From an uncultured Methylophaga sp. (lineage in GTDB: Bacteria; Pseudomonadota; Gammaproteobacteria; Nitrosococcales; Methylophagaceae), in assembly GCF_947259025.1 (NCBI RefSeq), contig NZ_CAMYKO010000007.1:23945-87944 (forward strand): 64,000 nt of DNA, written 5' to 3'. Shown piece by piece: positions 29,866 to 45,814 of the stretch (position 1 is the first letter of the stretch; the number at the start of each line of letters is the position of its first letter). The notes below the pieces were generated by a model. The model was given only the letters and a program-made list of their open reading frames with translations. It was not told the DNA's origin and did no database searches. Position numbers and translations under genes: made by a program.

Positions 29866-30663
29866 ATGGAGCTGAGGAGTTTACAGCAGCAGTTCCTCTA
29901 TCACCTGCTGGGTGAGTCAACCGGGTTGGAGAAGGTGATCGAGTCAACCCCGATGATGTCCGCCCGCGACCGGCTGAATATCTACGCCAATGGCTACCGC
30001 ATGCGGTTAAAAGAAGCGCTGCAGACCGACTTCGACAAACTCCACAGTTATCTTGGTGACGCGCAGTTTGATGCTTTGATGAATCGATATATCGACACCC
30101 ATCCATCACACACCACCAGCCTGCGTTATTTCAGTATTGCATTAGCGGAAATGCTGGCACAGGAATCACCTTACAGCGAACATATTGAGCTCGCGGAGCT
30201 GGCAAAGATTGAGCAGGCATTCGCCAACAGCTTTGATGCTGGCAATGCAGCCTGTTTGTCTCTGGAACATTTTGCTTCAATTCCTGAACAGGCCTGGCCG
30301 TCGTTACAGTTGACGATGCAACCTTCGCTGCAAATTATTGCTTGTTACAGCAATGCGTTTGCTATCTGGAAAGCCTTGTCTGCCGGTGAGCCGCCACCTG
30401 AAGCACAGCATCGTGATGAGGTTGAATACTGGGTGGTCTGGCGTCGTCCAGATCTGATTAGCCATTATCGACCTTTAGCGTTTGCCGAATATACCGCGCT
30501 CAAATCCATGTCTGAAGGGGACAGCTTTGCTGAGCTCTGCGAGCAACTGCTGGACTTGTTTTCGGAGACAGACACACCCATCAAGGCGATTGGCTTTTTA
30601 CAATCCTGGGTGCAGGAAGATATGCTGGCCGGGTTGGATTACGACGGTATTAACGCGACTTGA
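29866..30663 (+). CDS. DUF2063 partner protein (BufC-like, RRE/DNA-binding-like)
   Basis: LQQQF..HL, RLNIYANGYRMRL..AL, ELAKIEQA; directly after DUF692. Confidence 0.85.
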   Translation: MELRSLQQQFLYHLLGESTGLEKVIESTPMMSARDRLNIYANGYRMRLKEALQTDFDKLHSYLGDAQFDALMNRYIDTHPSHTTSLRYFSIALAEMLAQESPYSEHIELAELAKIEQAFANSFDAGNAACLSLEHFASIPEQAWPSLQLTMQPSLQIIACYSNAFAIWKALSAGEPPPEAQHRDEVEYWVVWRRPDLISHYRPLAFAEYTALKSMSEGDSFAELCEQLLDLFSETDTPIKAIGFLQSWVQEDMLAGLDYDGINAT

Positions 30664-31081
30664 CCAGCTTTTTCAGCGCTGTCAGGTAGTCTGCTTCAGC
30701 TGGTGGCTGGCCGTCACGTTGTGCCTGCCAAAGCATCTCTGCCAGACATTCTGCCATCGCATGTTCACAGTCATGGCGATCACCAAAGCGCAGCAGTAAT
30801 TGTTGATATAAATCGCGGATACCGGCAGGTCGGTCGGTGCTGATTTGCTCGTGCAGGGAAATATGCAGGCCCATATGCAGGAACGGATTGGAGTGACCGG
30901 CTTCTACCGGAAAGTCCTGATCCAGCTTATCGGGATCGGACAGCAGCGCATGATATTCGGGGTGCATTTCAATGATTTGTGCGACGACCTGCTCCATGGC
31001 ATCCAGCGGCTGGCCATTTTGTTGTTTGGCCCAGACATCAAAAAAGAACTGACGCAGTTGCTGGCGGTTCTGCCCAAACAT
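30650..31081 (-). CDS. DUF1841 family protein
   Basis: RQQLRQFFFDVWAK, MHPEYH, NPFLHMGLHISLHEQISTDRP; start placed at MFGQ right after the nth stop. Confidence 0.85.
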   Translation of the reverse strand: MFGQNRQQLRQFFFDVWAKQQNGQPLDAMEQVVAQIIEMHPEYHALLSDPDKLDQDFPVEAGHSNPFLHMGLHISLHEQISTDRPAGIRDLYQQLLLRFGDRHDCEHAMAECLAEMLWQAQRDGQPPAEADYLTALKKLVKSR

Positions 31082-41808: not shown

Positions 41809-41896
41809 GTGGAATTCCTCTGGTTGCGGCAACTAGACATCGCTTGCCGGAGTGTTAAGCTGAGCATACATTTTGCCAAGCGCGAGGAGGTTGTCA

Positions 41897-42589
41897 ATGA
41901 CAGCACAGAAAAGCATGAATCCAAAACAACGCGTTGCTGTCCACGCGGCCAATCTGGTGGAAGTCGATATGGTGGTGGGCTTGGGCACAGGCTCCACAGC
42001 GAATCTGTTTATTGAGGCGCTGGCCGAACGTAACCGGGATGAACAGCTCAATCTCACCGTGGTCAGTAGTTCGGCCATCAGTGCGGTAAAGGCTGAGCAA
42101 GCCGGTCTCAACGTTACTGCTATCGATACGCTAAACCATATTGATATGTATGTTGATGGTGCCGATGAAGTCACGCCGGATCTGACTTTGCTTAAGGGCC
42201 GTGGTCAGGATCTGGTGCGGGAGAAACTGCTGGCTTCAGCCGCCGATCAGTTTTACGTGCTGGTGGATGAAGGCAAACTGGTCGAACAAATCGGCGACAA
42301 GTTTCCTATCCCCGTTGAGGTCATGCCAGAAGCCTGGAAACTGGTGCTGGGCGAGTTGAAAAAGCAGGGCGGTCACGGCGAATTAAGGCTGAACGCCGGT
42401 GGTGATAATGTGGCAGTGACTGCGCATGGCAGCCTGGTGCTGGATATGCACTTTGAGCATGTCGACAGTCTGGAGCTAACCATGATGCTGGATACCATTC
42501 CCGGTGTTGTCGAGCACGGTATTTTCAGTGAACTGGCCACCGCCGTGTTCATTGGCGGCGAGCAGGAAGTGGAAGAGCACTGGCGTTAG
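41897..42589 (+). CDS. rpiA: Ribose-5-phosphate isomerase A
   Basis: GAGGAGG RBS; VGLGTGST, DGADE, KGRG, GVVEHG. Confidence 0.92.
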   Translation: MTAQKSMNPKQRVAVHAANLVEVDMVVGLGTGSTANLFIEALAERNRDEQLNLTVVSSSAISAVKAEQAGLNVTAIDTLNHIDMYVDGADEVTPDLTLLKGRGQDLVREKLLASAADQFYVLVDEGKLVEQIGDKFPIPVEVMPEAWKLVLGELKKQGGHGELRLNAGGDNVAVTAHGSLVLDMHFEHVDSLELTMMLDTIPGVVEHGIFSELATAVFIGGEQEVEEHWR

Positions 42590-42595
42590 AGAATT

Positions 42596-42811
42596 AACCA
42601 CAGAGCCACAGAGATTATGGCGTAGAAAAAAATCTATCCGCAGATTACGCTGATTTTCACAGATTTATAAAATAGTTTGCCGGAACAGTGATCCAGAAAA
42701 ATATTAATTGAGATGGTTCTGCCATTTCTTACTATTCTGAAAATCTGTGTTCATCTGCGTTAATCTGCGGATGACCTAGATAAACCTCTGTGTTCTCTGT
42801 GTCTCTGTGGT
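42596..42811. repeat. Nested palindromic element, copy 1
   Basis: Outer arms ACCACAGAGCCACAGAGA (42597-42614) and CTCTGTGTTCTCTGTGTCTCTGTGGT (42786-42811); inner arms ATCCGCAGATTACGCTGATTTTCACAGATTT (42636-42666) and AAATCTGTGTTCATCTGCGTTAATCTGCGGAT (42741-42772). Confidence 0.88.
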
Positions 42812-42823
42812 GAGTACCAATAT

Positions 42824-43336
42824 TTACTTCTTCAACTCTTCCAGGATGGTTTCGGCTTTGGATTTGCCGAATTCGCCCGAACCTTCAACGCCGATATACT
42901 GAACCACGCCGTCTTTGACGATCATGGCGAAACGATAGCAGCGAACGCCCATGCCACCGCCTGTCATATCGCGATCAAGGCCCAGCGCTTTGGCATACTC
43001 GGCACTGCCGTCTGCCATCATGCGTACTTTACCGGTGGCGTTGTTTTCACGGCCCCAGGCTGCCATGACGAAACCATCGTTAACCGCCATGCACCAGATT
43101 TCATCGGCACCGGCCGCCTTGATTTCATCGGCATGCGCTACAAAACCGGGCAGGTGCTCAGCAGAACACAGTGGCGTAAAGGCACCGGGCACACCAAAAA
43201 TAACAACAGTTTTGCCTTTGACCTGTTCACCGACATCCTGTGGCTCGGGTTTCATCGGACAGCCATTTTCCGGGTCAAAATCGGGGCTTTCACTCAGTTT
43301 ACCCTCGGGCAGGGTTTGGCCAACTTCAATAGTCAT
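42824..43336 (-). CDS. Peroxiredoxin, PRX5-like
   Basis: GVPGAFTPLCSAEHLPG, VNDGFVMAAW, ADGSAEY. Confidence 0.92.
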   Translation of the reverse strand: MTIEVGQTLPEGKLSESPDFDPENGCPMKPEPQDVGEQVKGKTVVIFGVPGAFTPLCSAEHLPGFVAHADEIKAAGADEIWCMAVNDGFVMAAWGRENNATGKVRMMADGSAEYAKALGLDRDMTGGGMGVRCYRFAMIVKDGVVQYIGVEGSGEFGKSKAETILEELKK

Positions 43337-43497
43337 AAGACACCTCTTGTTAGTAGTTCAACAGACTTTTCAGCTTAGCACAGGGCATGCGCCTACTAAC
43401 AAAAAACACGGTTCGCTGACGATGGCCATGGTTTGGTTTTCACCGTTGCTGTGGTTATCATGGCGGTCATTACCGAATCAATAAAAGGAATCCACTC

Positions 43498-44511
43498 ATG
43501 GCTGAACAAATACTGCGTTGGGGTATCCTCGGGGCGGCCCGGGTCAACGATAAACTGATGCCCGCCATTGTCGAAGCGAATAATGCCAAGCTGGTGGCGA
43601 TTGCCAGCCGGCGCCCGGGGGCGGCAGCAGAAACCCTGCAGAAGCATGCGCCCAACGAAAAAGATGCCGAGGCGATGGATGATCCGGAAGCCTTGATGTC
43701 ACGCGATGATATTGACGCGATTTACTTGCCAATGGCCAATGAAGAGCATGCCGAGTGGGCCCTGAAAGCGATTAATCATGGCAAACACGTGCTGATTGAA
43801 AAGCCCATGGCATTGACCGTGGCCGATATTGACGCCATTGAAGCAGCAGCCAAAGCCAATAATGTCACGGTGATGGAAGGCTTTATGTACCGCTTTCATA
43901 CCCAGCATGATTATGTCAGGGAGCTGATTGATTCCGGCAAGATCGGCGAGGTGCGCACCGTCAAGACCGCCTTTGCCTTTCCGATGAAACCGGCGCGCCT
44001 GTATCGCATCAACCGCGATATTGAACACGGCGGCGGGGCGATGTGGGATATTGGCCCCTATGCCGTGCATACGGCCAGACACTGGTTTGATAACGAGCCA
44101 GTGGCGGCGACAGCCATGGCTAAACTCAATGAGCATGGCGCCGATGTCAGTCTCAGCGGCATTTTTGATTTTGAAGATGGTCGCTATGCGCATTTTGAGA
44201 TGAGCTTTGAGCATTGCCGCCGCAGTGAGTATCAGATCCTGGGTACCAAGGGGGGCATTCTCTGTCACGCTGCCTGGCAGCCGCCGACTGAACAGCCATT
44301 GATCAGCTACTGGACCGATGAAGGCGAGAATGAAACCATCGCCCTGTCCACGGCCAACCATTTCAACCGTGAAATCGAACATTTCTCCGATTGTGTATTG
44401 AATGGCAAAGCGCCATTCCTCAGCTTTGCTGATGCCCGTGCCAACTGCGCTGCCATCAACGCCGCCCTTAAATCAGCGAGTGAGGGGCGTACTGTAAAAG
44501 TCGGCGTATAA
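43498..44511 (+). CDS. Gfo/Idh/MocA family oxidoreductase
   Basis: LRWGILGAA, HAEWALKA..GKHVLIEKP, MEGFMYRFH, GGAMWDIGPY. Confidence 0.92.
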   Translation: MAEQILRWGILGAARVNDKLMPAIVEANNAKLVAIASRRPGAAAETLQKHAPNEKDAEAMDDPEALMSRDDIDAIYLPMANEEHAEWALKAINHGKHVLIEKPMALTVADIDAIEAAAKANNVTVMEGFMYRFHTQHDYVRELIDSGKIGEVRTVKTAFAFPMKPARLYRINRDIEHGGGAMWDIGPYAVHTARHWFDNEPVAATAMAKLNEHGADVSLSGIFDFEDGRYAHFEMSFEHCRRSEYQILGTKGGILCHAAWQPPTEQPLISYWTDEGENETIALSTANHFNREIEHFSDCVLNGKAPFLSFADARANCAAINAALKSASEGRTVKVGV

Positions 44512-44524
44512 TGCGACTTTTACT

Positions 44525-44741
44525 AACCACAGAGACACAGAGGGCACAGAGGTTATTTGGCATCATCCGCAGATGACAAAGATGACACCGATTATGCCCA
44601 AGCGTTATTGCTTCTCGCTATTTATCAACTCAAGCCAGAGGCTATTAAGCTTGCTTAAAGGCTATTAAGCTTGCTTAAAATAATCTGTGCTAATCAGCGT
44701 AATCTGCGGATAAATATATTTATCTCTGTGCCTCTGTGGTT
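44525..44741. repeat. Nested palindromic element, copy 2 (inverted relative to copy 1)
   Basis: Outer arms ACCACAGAGACACAGAGGGCACAGAG (44526-44551) and TCTCTGTGCCTCTGTGGTT (44723-44741); inner arms ATCCGCAGATGACAAAGATGACACCGATT (44565-44593) and AATCTGTGCTAATCAGCGTAATCTGCGGAT (44682-44711). Confidence 0.88.
44639..44678. repeat. Perfect 20-bp tandem duplication
   Basis: AGGCTATTAAGCTTGCTTAA twice, inside the loop of element copy 2. Confidence 0.95.
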
Positions 44742-44755
44742 CAAAGCTCTAACCA

Positions 44756-45814
44756 TCAGAATAAATTCATTTGCTGAGGATGAGGCCGGAATAAATCCCG
44801 GTTAAGCGGCTGACGCGGCTGGTTCAACCCCAATCTGGTAATGGCTTTGTTAAAGCGCTGGGCGATCATATCGGCATAGAAACCATGGCCTCGCAGCCTG
44901 TGGCCGAAGCGGGCATCATTGGTTTTGCCATCTCTGGAGTCTCTTAGCCGGTTCATGACGTGCTCGGCCTTATCGGGATAATGGCTGGCCAGCCAATCTT
45001 CGAATAATGCGCTGACCTCTCGTGGCAGCCGCAATAGCAAATATTGTATCGAGCCTGCCCCGGCCTGGACACAGGCCGCCATAATGTTTTCCAGTTCAGT
45101 GTCGGTTAACACCGGGATCACCGGCGCGATCAGTACATCGACTGGTATACCGGCATCACGCAGTGTCCGGATAGTTTGCAGACGTCTGTCAGGGCTGGCG
45201 GCACGGGGTTCCAGACTGCGAGCCAGCGTTTTATCTAGGGTGGTGACCGACAGATTGACCCGCACCAGGTTATCCGCGGCGAGATCGGTCAAAATATCGA
45301 TATCCCGTTCCACCATCGCTGACTTGGTGACGATGGTGCAGGGGTGACGGAAGCTTTGTATTACTTCCAGGATCTGGCGGGTAATTCGCTGCTCTCGTTC
45401 CACCGGCTGATAGGGATCAGTATTGGCGCCCAATGAAATCGGCGAACATTGATAGGACTTTGCCATTAATTCTTTGCGAAGCAGCGCTGCGGCATCGGGC
45501 TTGGCAGTGAGGCGGGTTTCAAAGTCGAGCCCCGGTGACAGGCCCAGATAAGCATGGCTGGGCCGGGCGAAACAATAGATGCAGCCATGTTCGCAGCCGC
45601 GGTAGACATTGATGGACTGGCTGAAAGGCAGATCGGGAGAATCATTACGGGTGATGATACTGCGTGGTGATTCAAAATCCAGCTGCGTTTTGCGTGGCGG
45701 TAATGCCTGCTCCTGATGCCAGCCGTCATCGATTGACTCGCGCTCAAACTCGCTGAATCGACTGTCCCTGTTATCTGAGGTGCCGCGTCCCTTGATGACG
45801 GGAGAACGTAGCAT
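44756..45814 (-). CDS. PA0069-family radical SAM protein
   Basis: NVYRGCEHGCIYCFAR, GANTDPYQPVE, LEPRAASP..RL. Confidence 0.9.
   Translation of the reverse strand: MLRSPVIKGRGTSDNRDSRFSEFERESIDDGWHQEQALPPRKTQLDFESPRSIITRNDSPDLPFSQSINVYRGCEHGCIYCFARPSHAYLGLSPGLDFETRLTAKPDAAALLRKELMAKSYQCSPISLGANTDPYQPVEREQRITRQILEVIQSFRHPCTIVTKSAMVERDIDILTDLAADNLVRVNLSVTTLDKTLARSLEPRAASPDRRLQTIRTLRDAGIPVDVLIAPVIPVLTDTELENIMAACVQAGAGSIQYLLLRLPREVSALFEDWLASHYPDKAEHVMNRLRDSRDGKTNDARFGHRLRGHGFYADMIAQRFNKAITRLGLNQPRQPLNRDLFRPHPQQMNLF

Follow-up and report, generated by a model that had tools for sequence, protein, structure and literature searches.

The 64,000-nucleotide stretch of Methylophaga DNA analysed here, called the window throughout, contains two nested palindromic elements, E18 and E19, which are almost certainly composites that contain no gene and belong to two related families of inverted word arrays. 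In both, an outer pair of inverted arms made of tandem CACAGAG words encloses an inner pair made of CGCAGAT-type words, and across the genus the same two arm types directly flank genes of the GxxExxY family (TIGR04256/PF13366), which encode a predicted nuclease. The best explanation of the whole combines this identity of E18 and E19 with the action of a resident nuclease on the word arrays, and we give it about an even chance of being correct.

Architecture of E18 and E19

E18 is 217 bp long (42596..42812); neither it nor E19, nor their loops, has an assigned strand. Its outer left arm of two CACAGAG words (AACCACAGAGCCACAGAG; 42596..42613, + strand) and its outer right arm of three CTCTGTG words, which ends in GGTG (42786..42812, - strand), are 94% complementary over 18 nt (AACCACAGAGCCACAGAG / CTCTGTGTTCTCTGTGTCTCTGTGGTG). 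Enclosed by these are an inner left arm of three CGCAGAT-type words (TATCCGCAGAT TA CGCTGAT TTT CACAGAT; 42635..42664, + strand), a loop of 78 nt that is unique, free of open reading frames (ORFs) and unmatched elsewhere in the genome (42665..42742), and an inner right arm (ATCTGTG..ATCTGCG..ATCTGCGGATG; 42743..42773, - strand). E19 (44525..44741), also of 217 bp, is a composite of the same type in reversed orientation. Its outer left arm has three CACAGAG words (44525..44551, + strand) and its outer right arm two CTCTGTG words with GGTT at the end (44724..44741, - strand), so that outer-arm word counts from left to right are 2/3 in E18 and 3/2 in E19; here too the outer arms are 94% complementary over 18 nt. 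The inner left arm (CATCCGCAGAT GA CAAAGAT GA CACCGAT; 44564..44592, + strand) has decayed words, the inner right arm reads ATCTGTG..ATCAGCG..ATCTGCGGATA (44683..44712, - strand), and the unique loop of about 89 nt between them (44593..44682) includes a 20-bp tandem duplication (44639-44678). Every inner arm of the two elements has three CGCAGAT-type words. All of these arms are inverted arrays of two to three tandem 7-nt words of the form C-R-C-N-R-A-K, repeated with a period of 8-10 nt.

The earlier note on this DNA described the same nested architecture at both places, and we confirm it, except that the first element ends at 42812 rather than at 42811. The note also held that the arms align when one copy is reverse-complemented; E18 scores 126 against the reverse complement of E19 and 66 against E19 as read, and the linker strings that were quoted are present. 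Over the terminal 70 nt, 54-57 positions of the two elements match, where shuffled sequences match at 37 on average and 43 at most. The loops are unrelated, as had been claimed: their similarity is at background, and each is unique in the genome. No ORF of at least 50 aa was found inside E18 or E19, in agreement with the claim that they encode no transposase, and neither carries the nuclease gene itself. The double-word pattern CACAGAGNNCACAGAG matches twice in the window, where 0.00 matches are expected, and all four exact copies of ATCCGCAGAT in the window lie inside E18 and E19. Predicted RNA folds are very stable for both E18 (-83.8 kcal/mol, z = -9.0) and E19 (-79.3 kcal/mol, z = -6.1). 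Chance palindromes are ruled out by the excess of CACAGAGNNCACAGAG in the window together with these z-scores.

Word-array families and the GxxExxY gene

The genome of the window (G000; 2.70 Mb in 8 contigs, 99.9% complete) contains about 20 CACAGAG-armed elements of 91-725 bp with common inverted termini, AACCACAGAGGCACAGAG(nnCACAGAG), and about 13 CGCAGAT-armed elements. Of the 37 genomes of the genus that were compared, 25-26 have arms; comparisons across relatives were read from the output rather than scripted. This bears out the earlier proposal of a dispersed gene-less family: further copies exist, the sites are polymorphic among relatives, and no described family was matched. The outer arm follows the formula (T)AACC-ACAGAG-n-CACAGAG-nn-CACAGAG and the inner arm (T)ATCC-GCAGAT-nn-CRCAGAT-nnn-CRCAGAT. 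In build the two types are homologous, both having three words that recur every 8-10 nt. The interiors of CACAGAG elements are of four kinds, namely inner CGCAGAT arms (in seven elements and, decayed, in one more), copies of a hairpin resembling repetitive extragenic palindromic (REP) sequences (GTCATTGCGAGG..GCAATCC, abundant in G000), unique sequence and, in one element (E4), a gene. CGCAGAT arms stand on their own at four G000 loci, and at C5:209597-209806 they enclose a CACAGAG element. Since nesting occurs in both orders, the nested element, or doll, is no fixed design, and the single shared architecture of the earlier note has to give way to two arm types that also occur alone or in the opposite order.

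Similarity between elements is confined to the terminal 45-83 nt, which are 72-85% identical, and none of the eight dolls has a loop in common with another or with any other part of the genome. By eye, no remnant of a gene of clade B, introduced below, or of the ancestral intergenic hairpin was seen in loops or flanks. The left and right halves of dolls are distinguishable, with the same asymmetry across copies (half-arm alignment scores of 64/31 for E18 against the reverse complement of E19, 59/30 for E6 against E19 and 59/31 for E6 against E14). This common asymmetry implies that the composite was copied whole, on several occasions at least. Elements lie mostly 0-15 nt from a stop codon, and 12 of 26 fit tightly into the gap of a convergent gene pair; E10 and E20 each end in a TAA or TGA that serves both neighbouring genes as stop codon.

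Two further kinds of repeat arrangement were observed in this genome. The REP-like hairpin family (GTCAYTGCGAGG..n..GCARTCCAG) is very abundant and often forms long tandem arrays of alternating orientation (for example C4:166337-166765, C4:191574-194985, C6:214267-214884 and C6:222323-223039); it is also present inside elements E1, E8 and E11-E13. At C5:86558-87282 and C5:105120-105492 arms form tandem arrays: in one, a left arm precedes three units of about 215 bp, each closed by a right arm, and in the other two left arms precede a single right arm, which suggests unequal recombination or repeated insertion at arms.

The gene-bearing element E4 (C1:181895-182371, 477 bp) is CACAGAG-armed and encloses a PF13366/TIGR04256 GxxExxY gene of 123 aa. 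Arms of this type directly flank the gene in E4 and in five congeners, and CGCAGAT arms do so in 11 congeners. The PF13366 gene is present in 17 of the 37 genomes, once in each except G000, which has two. The proteins fall into clades A and B with about 38% mutual identity, clade B being monophyletic (SH-aLRT 96), and arm type follows clade: all six clade A genes are directly flanked by CACAGAG arms and all eight intact clade B genes by CGCAGAT arms, while CGCAGAT arms were found in repeat scans at two of three clade B pseudogenes, the third lying between exact CGCAGAT arm matches. The second GxxExxY gene of G000 (C6:147294-147654) has arms of a third word, CACGGAA. Around it, CACGGAA/CACGAAA arms at C6:147240-147846 and C6:148715 are accompanied by extra partial arm copies, and G000 has no dispersed gene-less CACGGAA copies. 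The earlier note named GxxExxY and four-helix-bundle genes as flanked by similar arms in other bacteria; E4 and its relatives bear out the former, and no four-helix-bundle gene with these words was found. PF05635 (four-helix-bundle) is absent from G000. The only PF05635 gene of the genus (23S_rRNA_IVP; L147:1259-1868, that is G016:C14, ~30542-30847) has 28-nt inverted arms of a CCCACT-type word, alike in layout but of a different word family.

All gene copies that were checked, 16 of 17, lie directly 3' of dhaL, between convergent dhaL and dhaK (from coordinates in 15 genomes and from flanking sequence in one), and clades A and B are mixed among dhaL identity groups. The gene copy is therefore a resident of one locus at which clades replace each other, and not a free transposon. 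The same dhaL site has a plain 17-bp hairpin in arm-free species, a gene-less CGCAGAT element in G010 and a mini-element in G039. In G018 it is occupied by a triple doll, CACAGAG > CGCAGAT > CACAGAG > clade A gene (L029:1-801; G018:C70:19750-20550), which suggests a recent replacement of a clade B gene at this site. The linkers of the triple doll, 43 nt long, are perfectly complementary, and this points to arm-to-arm copying rather than plain insertion. Part of its right end recurs further downstream. Beside the dhaL/dhaK site of G000, translations of C1:184485-188212 read as duplicated hexulose-phosphate synthase-like genes and a putative transaldolase gene, which suggests a methylotroph using the ribulose monophosphate pathway.

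These observations bear on whether the elements could be ordinary miniature inverted-repeat transposable elements (MITEs) of an unrecognised insertion sequence (IS) family, with the transposase lost or encoded elsewhere and GxxExxY a captured cargo, an origin that we regard as highly improbable. The terminal inverted repeats of 18-30 bp and the 20-30 intergenic copies would suit such an origin, as would T-A ahead of ACC at 24 of 40 ends, which recalls TA-targeting MITEs such as Correia elements; these bases are symmetric with the repeat and may belong to it. The internal sequence, however, is not common to copies, as the interior of a parental IS would be, only the termini being shared. GxxExxY is the only ORF found within arms in G000 and 17 congeners, where no longer copy bearing a transposase was seen, and the arm type switches along with the GxxExxY clade. 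G000 gave no match to the Y1 transposase of REP-associated tyrosine transposases (RAYTs; PF01797), though REP-like hairpins abound in it and control genomes gave matches, and the RAYT/IS200 gene that the earlier note proposed to look for in longer copies is absent.

Arm numbers follow the presence of the gene. Exact matches to CACAGAG and CGCAGAT arms together average 22 per genome in the 17 genomes with the gene and 3.3 in the 20 without it, 10 of which have no match of either type. G038, with clade B only, has 0 CACAGAG and 24 CGCAGAT matches; of the genomes with clade A, G000 has 28 and 9 and G041 has 19 and 3. Gene-less copies are also concentrated near the dhaL site in G000 (4 of 24 within 13 kb, Poisson P 1e-4), G008 (6 of 14 within 30 kb, P 4e-7) and G034 (3 of 11 within 20 kb, P 5e-4). 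The same data weigh on a second alternative, in which the words would be sites for another DNA-binding protein of the host, with a role in the nucleoid or topology like that of REP sequences and bacterial interspersed mosaic elements with gyrase or integration host factor, and the nuclease gene would be a passenger. Conserved words with free spacers, described below, suit reiterated protein sites, the elements are old and stable, and their clustering is regional. A core host function would nevertheless sit oddly with ten congeners that have no arms at all, every gene-bearing cassette has one arm type per protein clade, and the layout of a gene within arms recurs across phyla with changing words. 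We therefore consider the passenger explanation very unlikely.

Word recognition and alternative explanations

What is conserved in the arms is the word. Across 40 CACAGAG arms, word 1 has 0.05 and word 2 has 0.15 mismatches per 7 nt, while the 2-nt spacer before word 3 takes ten forms and is never equal on both arms in the ten elements that have the third word twice. In nine of 20 CACAGAG elements the arms are unequal, with three words against two. Near-invariant words with free spacers, linkers and loops imply a constraint on word sequence and not on base pairing, and they would be the pattern expected of reiterated protein-recognition sites. The view of the earlier note that the arms are conserved for pairing does not accord with these data. 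Nor is the exchangeable payload that it proposed needed: arms that are only 72-85% alike imply that the copies are old, and in old copies neutral drift suffices to make the loops unrelated.

We suggest, at close to an even chance, that the words are recognised by a resident nuclease, which spreads the arm pairs to terminator positions or maintains them there. The arrangement would be like that of RAYTs and their REP doublets forming hairpins (REPINs) but with another enzyme, one resident nuclease gene per genome being fixed after dhaL. The nuclease would recognise its own arms by their repeated 7-nt words, probably when these are extruded as a hairpin or cruciform, and this recognition would drive slow spread and/or upkeep of non-autonomous arm pairs. 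Arm pairs would settle right after stop codons, mostly between convergent genes, occupying the position of an ordinary terminator hairpin in element-free relatives. Dolls would form when one family settles in the loop of the other, in either order, and the whole doll could then be copied. Because G000 has only the clade A (CACAGAG) nuclease of the two, the outer arms of E18 and E19 would be cognate to it and the inner arms orphan relics.

Several observations weigh against this mechanism. The gene copy is single and syntenic, unlike a transposon. No consistent target-site duplication and no longer direct repeat was seen, and G000 has no recent copy, with no shared loops and with arms only as alike as stated above. 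Two genomes with clade A only are exceptions to the match of arm type and clade, G008 with 10 CACAGAG and 19 CGCAGAT exact matches and G018 with 11 and 14. In G000 the orphan arms are just slightly more decayed than the cognate ones, 54% of CGCAGAT against 78% of CACAGAG arms having no more than one mismatch (P = 0.06). The clustering near dhaL may partly reflect regional hot spots, as gene-free clusters exist too. Outside the genus the word variant has no association with the protein tree (14 changes, where shuffles give 13.2), so that support for word reading by the protein is confined to the deep divergence of clades A, B and C. The covariation of clade and arm is thin, amounting to just two to three independent events, and the same pattern would also arise by co-inheritance.

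The sites occupied by E18 and E19 are informative as to position and age. E18 lies between rpiA (ribose-5-phosphate isomerase A; 41873..42589, + strand; PF06026, E 1.6e-54) and a redoxin/AhpC-TSA peroxiredoxin gene (42824..43336, - strand; PF08534, E 1.7e-33), beginning 6 nt past the rpiA stop codon and ending 11 nt short of the redoxin stop. E19 lies between a Gfo/Idh/MocA oxidoreductase gene (43498..44511, + strand) and a radical SAM gene (44756..45814, - strand; PF04055), and is abutted by a small hairpin with a 10-bp stem over the Gfo stop codon (44494..44523, no strand). Each element is thus between a convergent gene pair, and the family matches agree with the neighbours named in the earlier note. 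At the rpiA/prx junction (site 1) the gap is about 30-70 nt in most of 18 congeners; G007 has a plain small hairpin (GGGAGCGAAATACTTCGCTCCC) within 45 nt, and G016 another CACAGAG-armed element, different from E18. At site 2, the place of E19, the CGCAGAT pairs of G004, G041 and G045 are orthologous, their loop is short and conserved, and of the CACAGAG arms only the right one is present; G016 retains the right half alone. Occupancy of both sites varies from species to species, and at site 2 it is of long standing. In these four relatives a small membrane-protein gene comes next, and its absence from G000 implies that formation or turnover of E19 was accompanied by a deletion of about 200 bp. 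The membrane protein of the relatives, about 65 aa with the motif GKLPGDI and presumably DUF2905-like, is encoded between the element and the radical SAM gene; the gene loci compared with window 44742-44755 were L014:1670-1870, L011:2660-2866 and L017:2975-3180.

Such positions are also what would be expected of host-serving RNA hairpins, acting as bidirectional terminators at 3' ends, as exonuclease barriers or as RNase III sites, with the GxxExxY genes merely inside them as the S23p ORF is in the intervening sequence (IVS) of 23S rRNA. This is the main rival of the word-recognising nuclease, and we judge it unlikely, though a good deal less so than the two alternatives above. The elements stand 0-15 nt past stop codons, mostly in convergent gaps, and replace the small terminator-like hairpins of the empty sites in relatives; E18 and E19 have very stable folds, site 2 is occupied in five species, and an ORF-containing loop on a stem of about 28 bp is the geometry of the Coxiella IVS, the stem of which is cut by RNase III (PMC4990558). 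A conserved RNA structure would, however, permit compensatory change, yet the words are fixed and the spacers of the two arms differ in every comparable element, and an unequal number of words on the two arms is common (9 of 20). The hairpins are not followed by a U-tract, and Rfam covariance models gave no match at E <= 1 over 42000-45500. The correlation of arm numbers with gene presence and the recurrence of the tandem-word design across phyla are left unexplained by an RNA function.

Related systems and the wider family

The known system closest in behaviour is REPIN/RAYT and the closest in geometry the Coxiella 23S IVS. Like REPIN/RAYT, the present system has a single-copy, vertically kept gene within its own inverted repeats, tens of gene-less inverted doublets that are intergenic and often at gene 3' ends, and a repeat type that is specific to the gene clade, with repeats few or absent where the gene is lacking. 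Unlike in REPIN/RAYT, the enzyme here is a predicted PD-(D/E)XK protein of 120-130 aa and not a Y1 HUH transposase, PF01797 being unmatched; the arm consists of two to three tandem 7-nt words, whereas a REP is one imperfect palindrome; and the loops are not common to copies. The Coxiella burnetii IVS is 444 nt long, with a 28-bp stem that is cut by RNase III and an S23p ORF in the loop (PMC4990558). Gene-bearing elements here likewise have about 430-480 nt, with terminal inverted repeats of 28-30 bp round one small ORF, and a sporadic distribution that suggests horizontal transfer. They differ from the IVS in lying between protein-coding genes rather than in rRNA helices 9, 25 or 45, and in that the ORF is a nuclease and not a four-helix-bundle protein, E18 and E19 having no ORF.

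Correia/NEMIS-type MITEs are 100-220 bp long, have T-A at their ends and terminal inverted repeats of about 26 bp, and their copies are alike throughout; their hairpins lie beside genes, are co-transcribed with them and can be RNase III substrates or terminators. The elements described here resemble them in size, in having inverted repeats and terminal TA, and in lying beside genes. In contrast to Correia MITEs, only the arms are common to copies, these arms consist of tandem words, and a cognate gene exists. Nested insertions of MITEs or other repeats, such as those of IS elements that target REP loops, also place one palindrome inside the loop of another, and this likeness extends to both orders of nesting here and to the triple doll in a relative. 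In the present case, unlike in those, the two nested families have a homologous design, and each is linked with clades of a single protein family.

The GxxExxY protein itself looks like an active nuclease. An AlphaFold2 model has a mean pLDDT of 97.1, and the D, E and K of the PD-(D/E)XK site are invariant in 78 sequences. Sequence searches of solved structures found no relative; among solved folds the closest are Cas4 SSO0001 (TM 0.54) and, from archaea, the Holliday-junction resolvase Hjc (TM 0.48), with Foldseek E-values that are all >0.001. A small, probably dimeric, structure-specific nuclease of this kind would suit an extruded hairpin or cruciform. A 2012 survey of the PD-(D/E)XK superfamily listed PF13366 as "Unknown", with multiple transfers (PMC3424549). 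The arm sequences were not found in the literature, where GxxExxY and PF13366 are mentioned in passing only, and we found no published description of, or name for, inverted word arrays paired with a GxxExxY gene.

Searched with a profile of the genus proteins, species-representative genomes gave at least 586 relatives, which belong to many bacterial phyla and to Methanothrix. Forty GxxExxY loci from many phyla were inspected, and at 28 of them the gene is flanked or abutted by inverted word-array arms; the words include CACAGAG, CACGGAG, CGCAGAG, CACAAAG, CGCGGAG, CGCAAAG, CACGAAG and CACCGAG. We propose tentatively, and with some doubt, that GxxExxY proteins and inverted word arrays form an unrecognised class of resident nuclease plus repeat that spans phyla, an analogue of REPIN/RAYT on another fold. 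Each clade would read its own 7-nt word, present two to three times per arm, on hairpin or cruciform DNA, and would copy or maintain arm pairs without a gene at terminator positions. Rival clades would displace one another at a fixed master locus (here dhaL/dhaK), and dolls would be substrates addressed to two nucleases at once.

The GxxExxY family (TIGR04256/PF13366) is very large and lacks an assigned function, and the word arrays provide a concrete candidate substrate. They also account for spurious ORFs (such as ..NHRGTEDTE..) and for palindromes that upset annotation and assembly, and they bear on the old puzzle of ORF-bearing hairpin inserts in 23S rRNA. The genus offers a natural experiment, with two clades that have their own words, one master site, copy numbers that track the gene and ten genomes free of both arms and gene as controls, and tests would be feasible in a methylotroph that is probably culturable.

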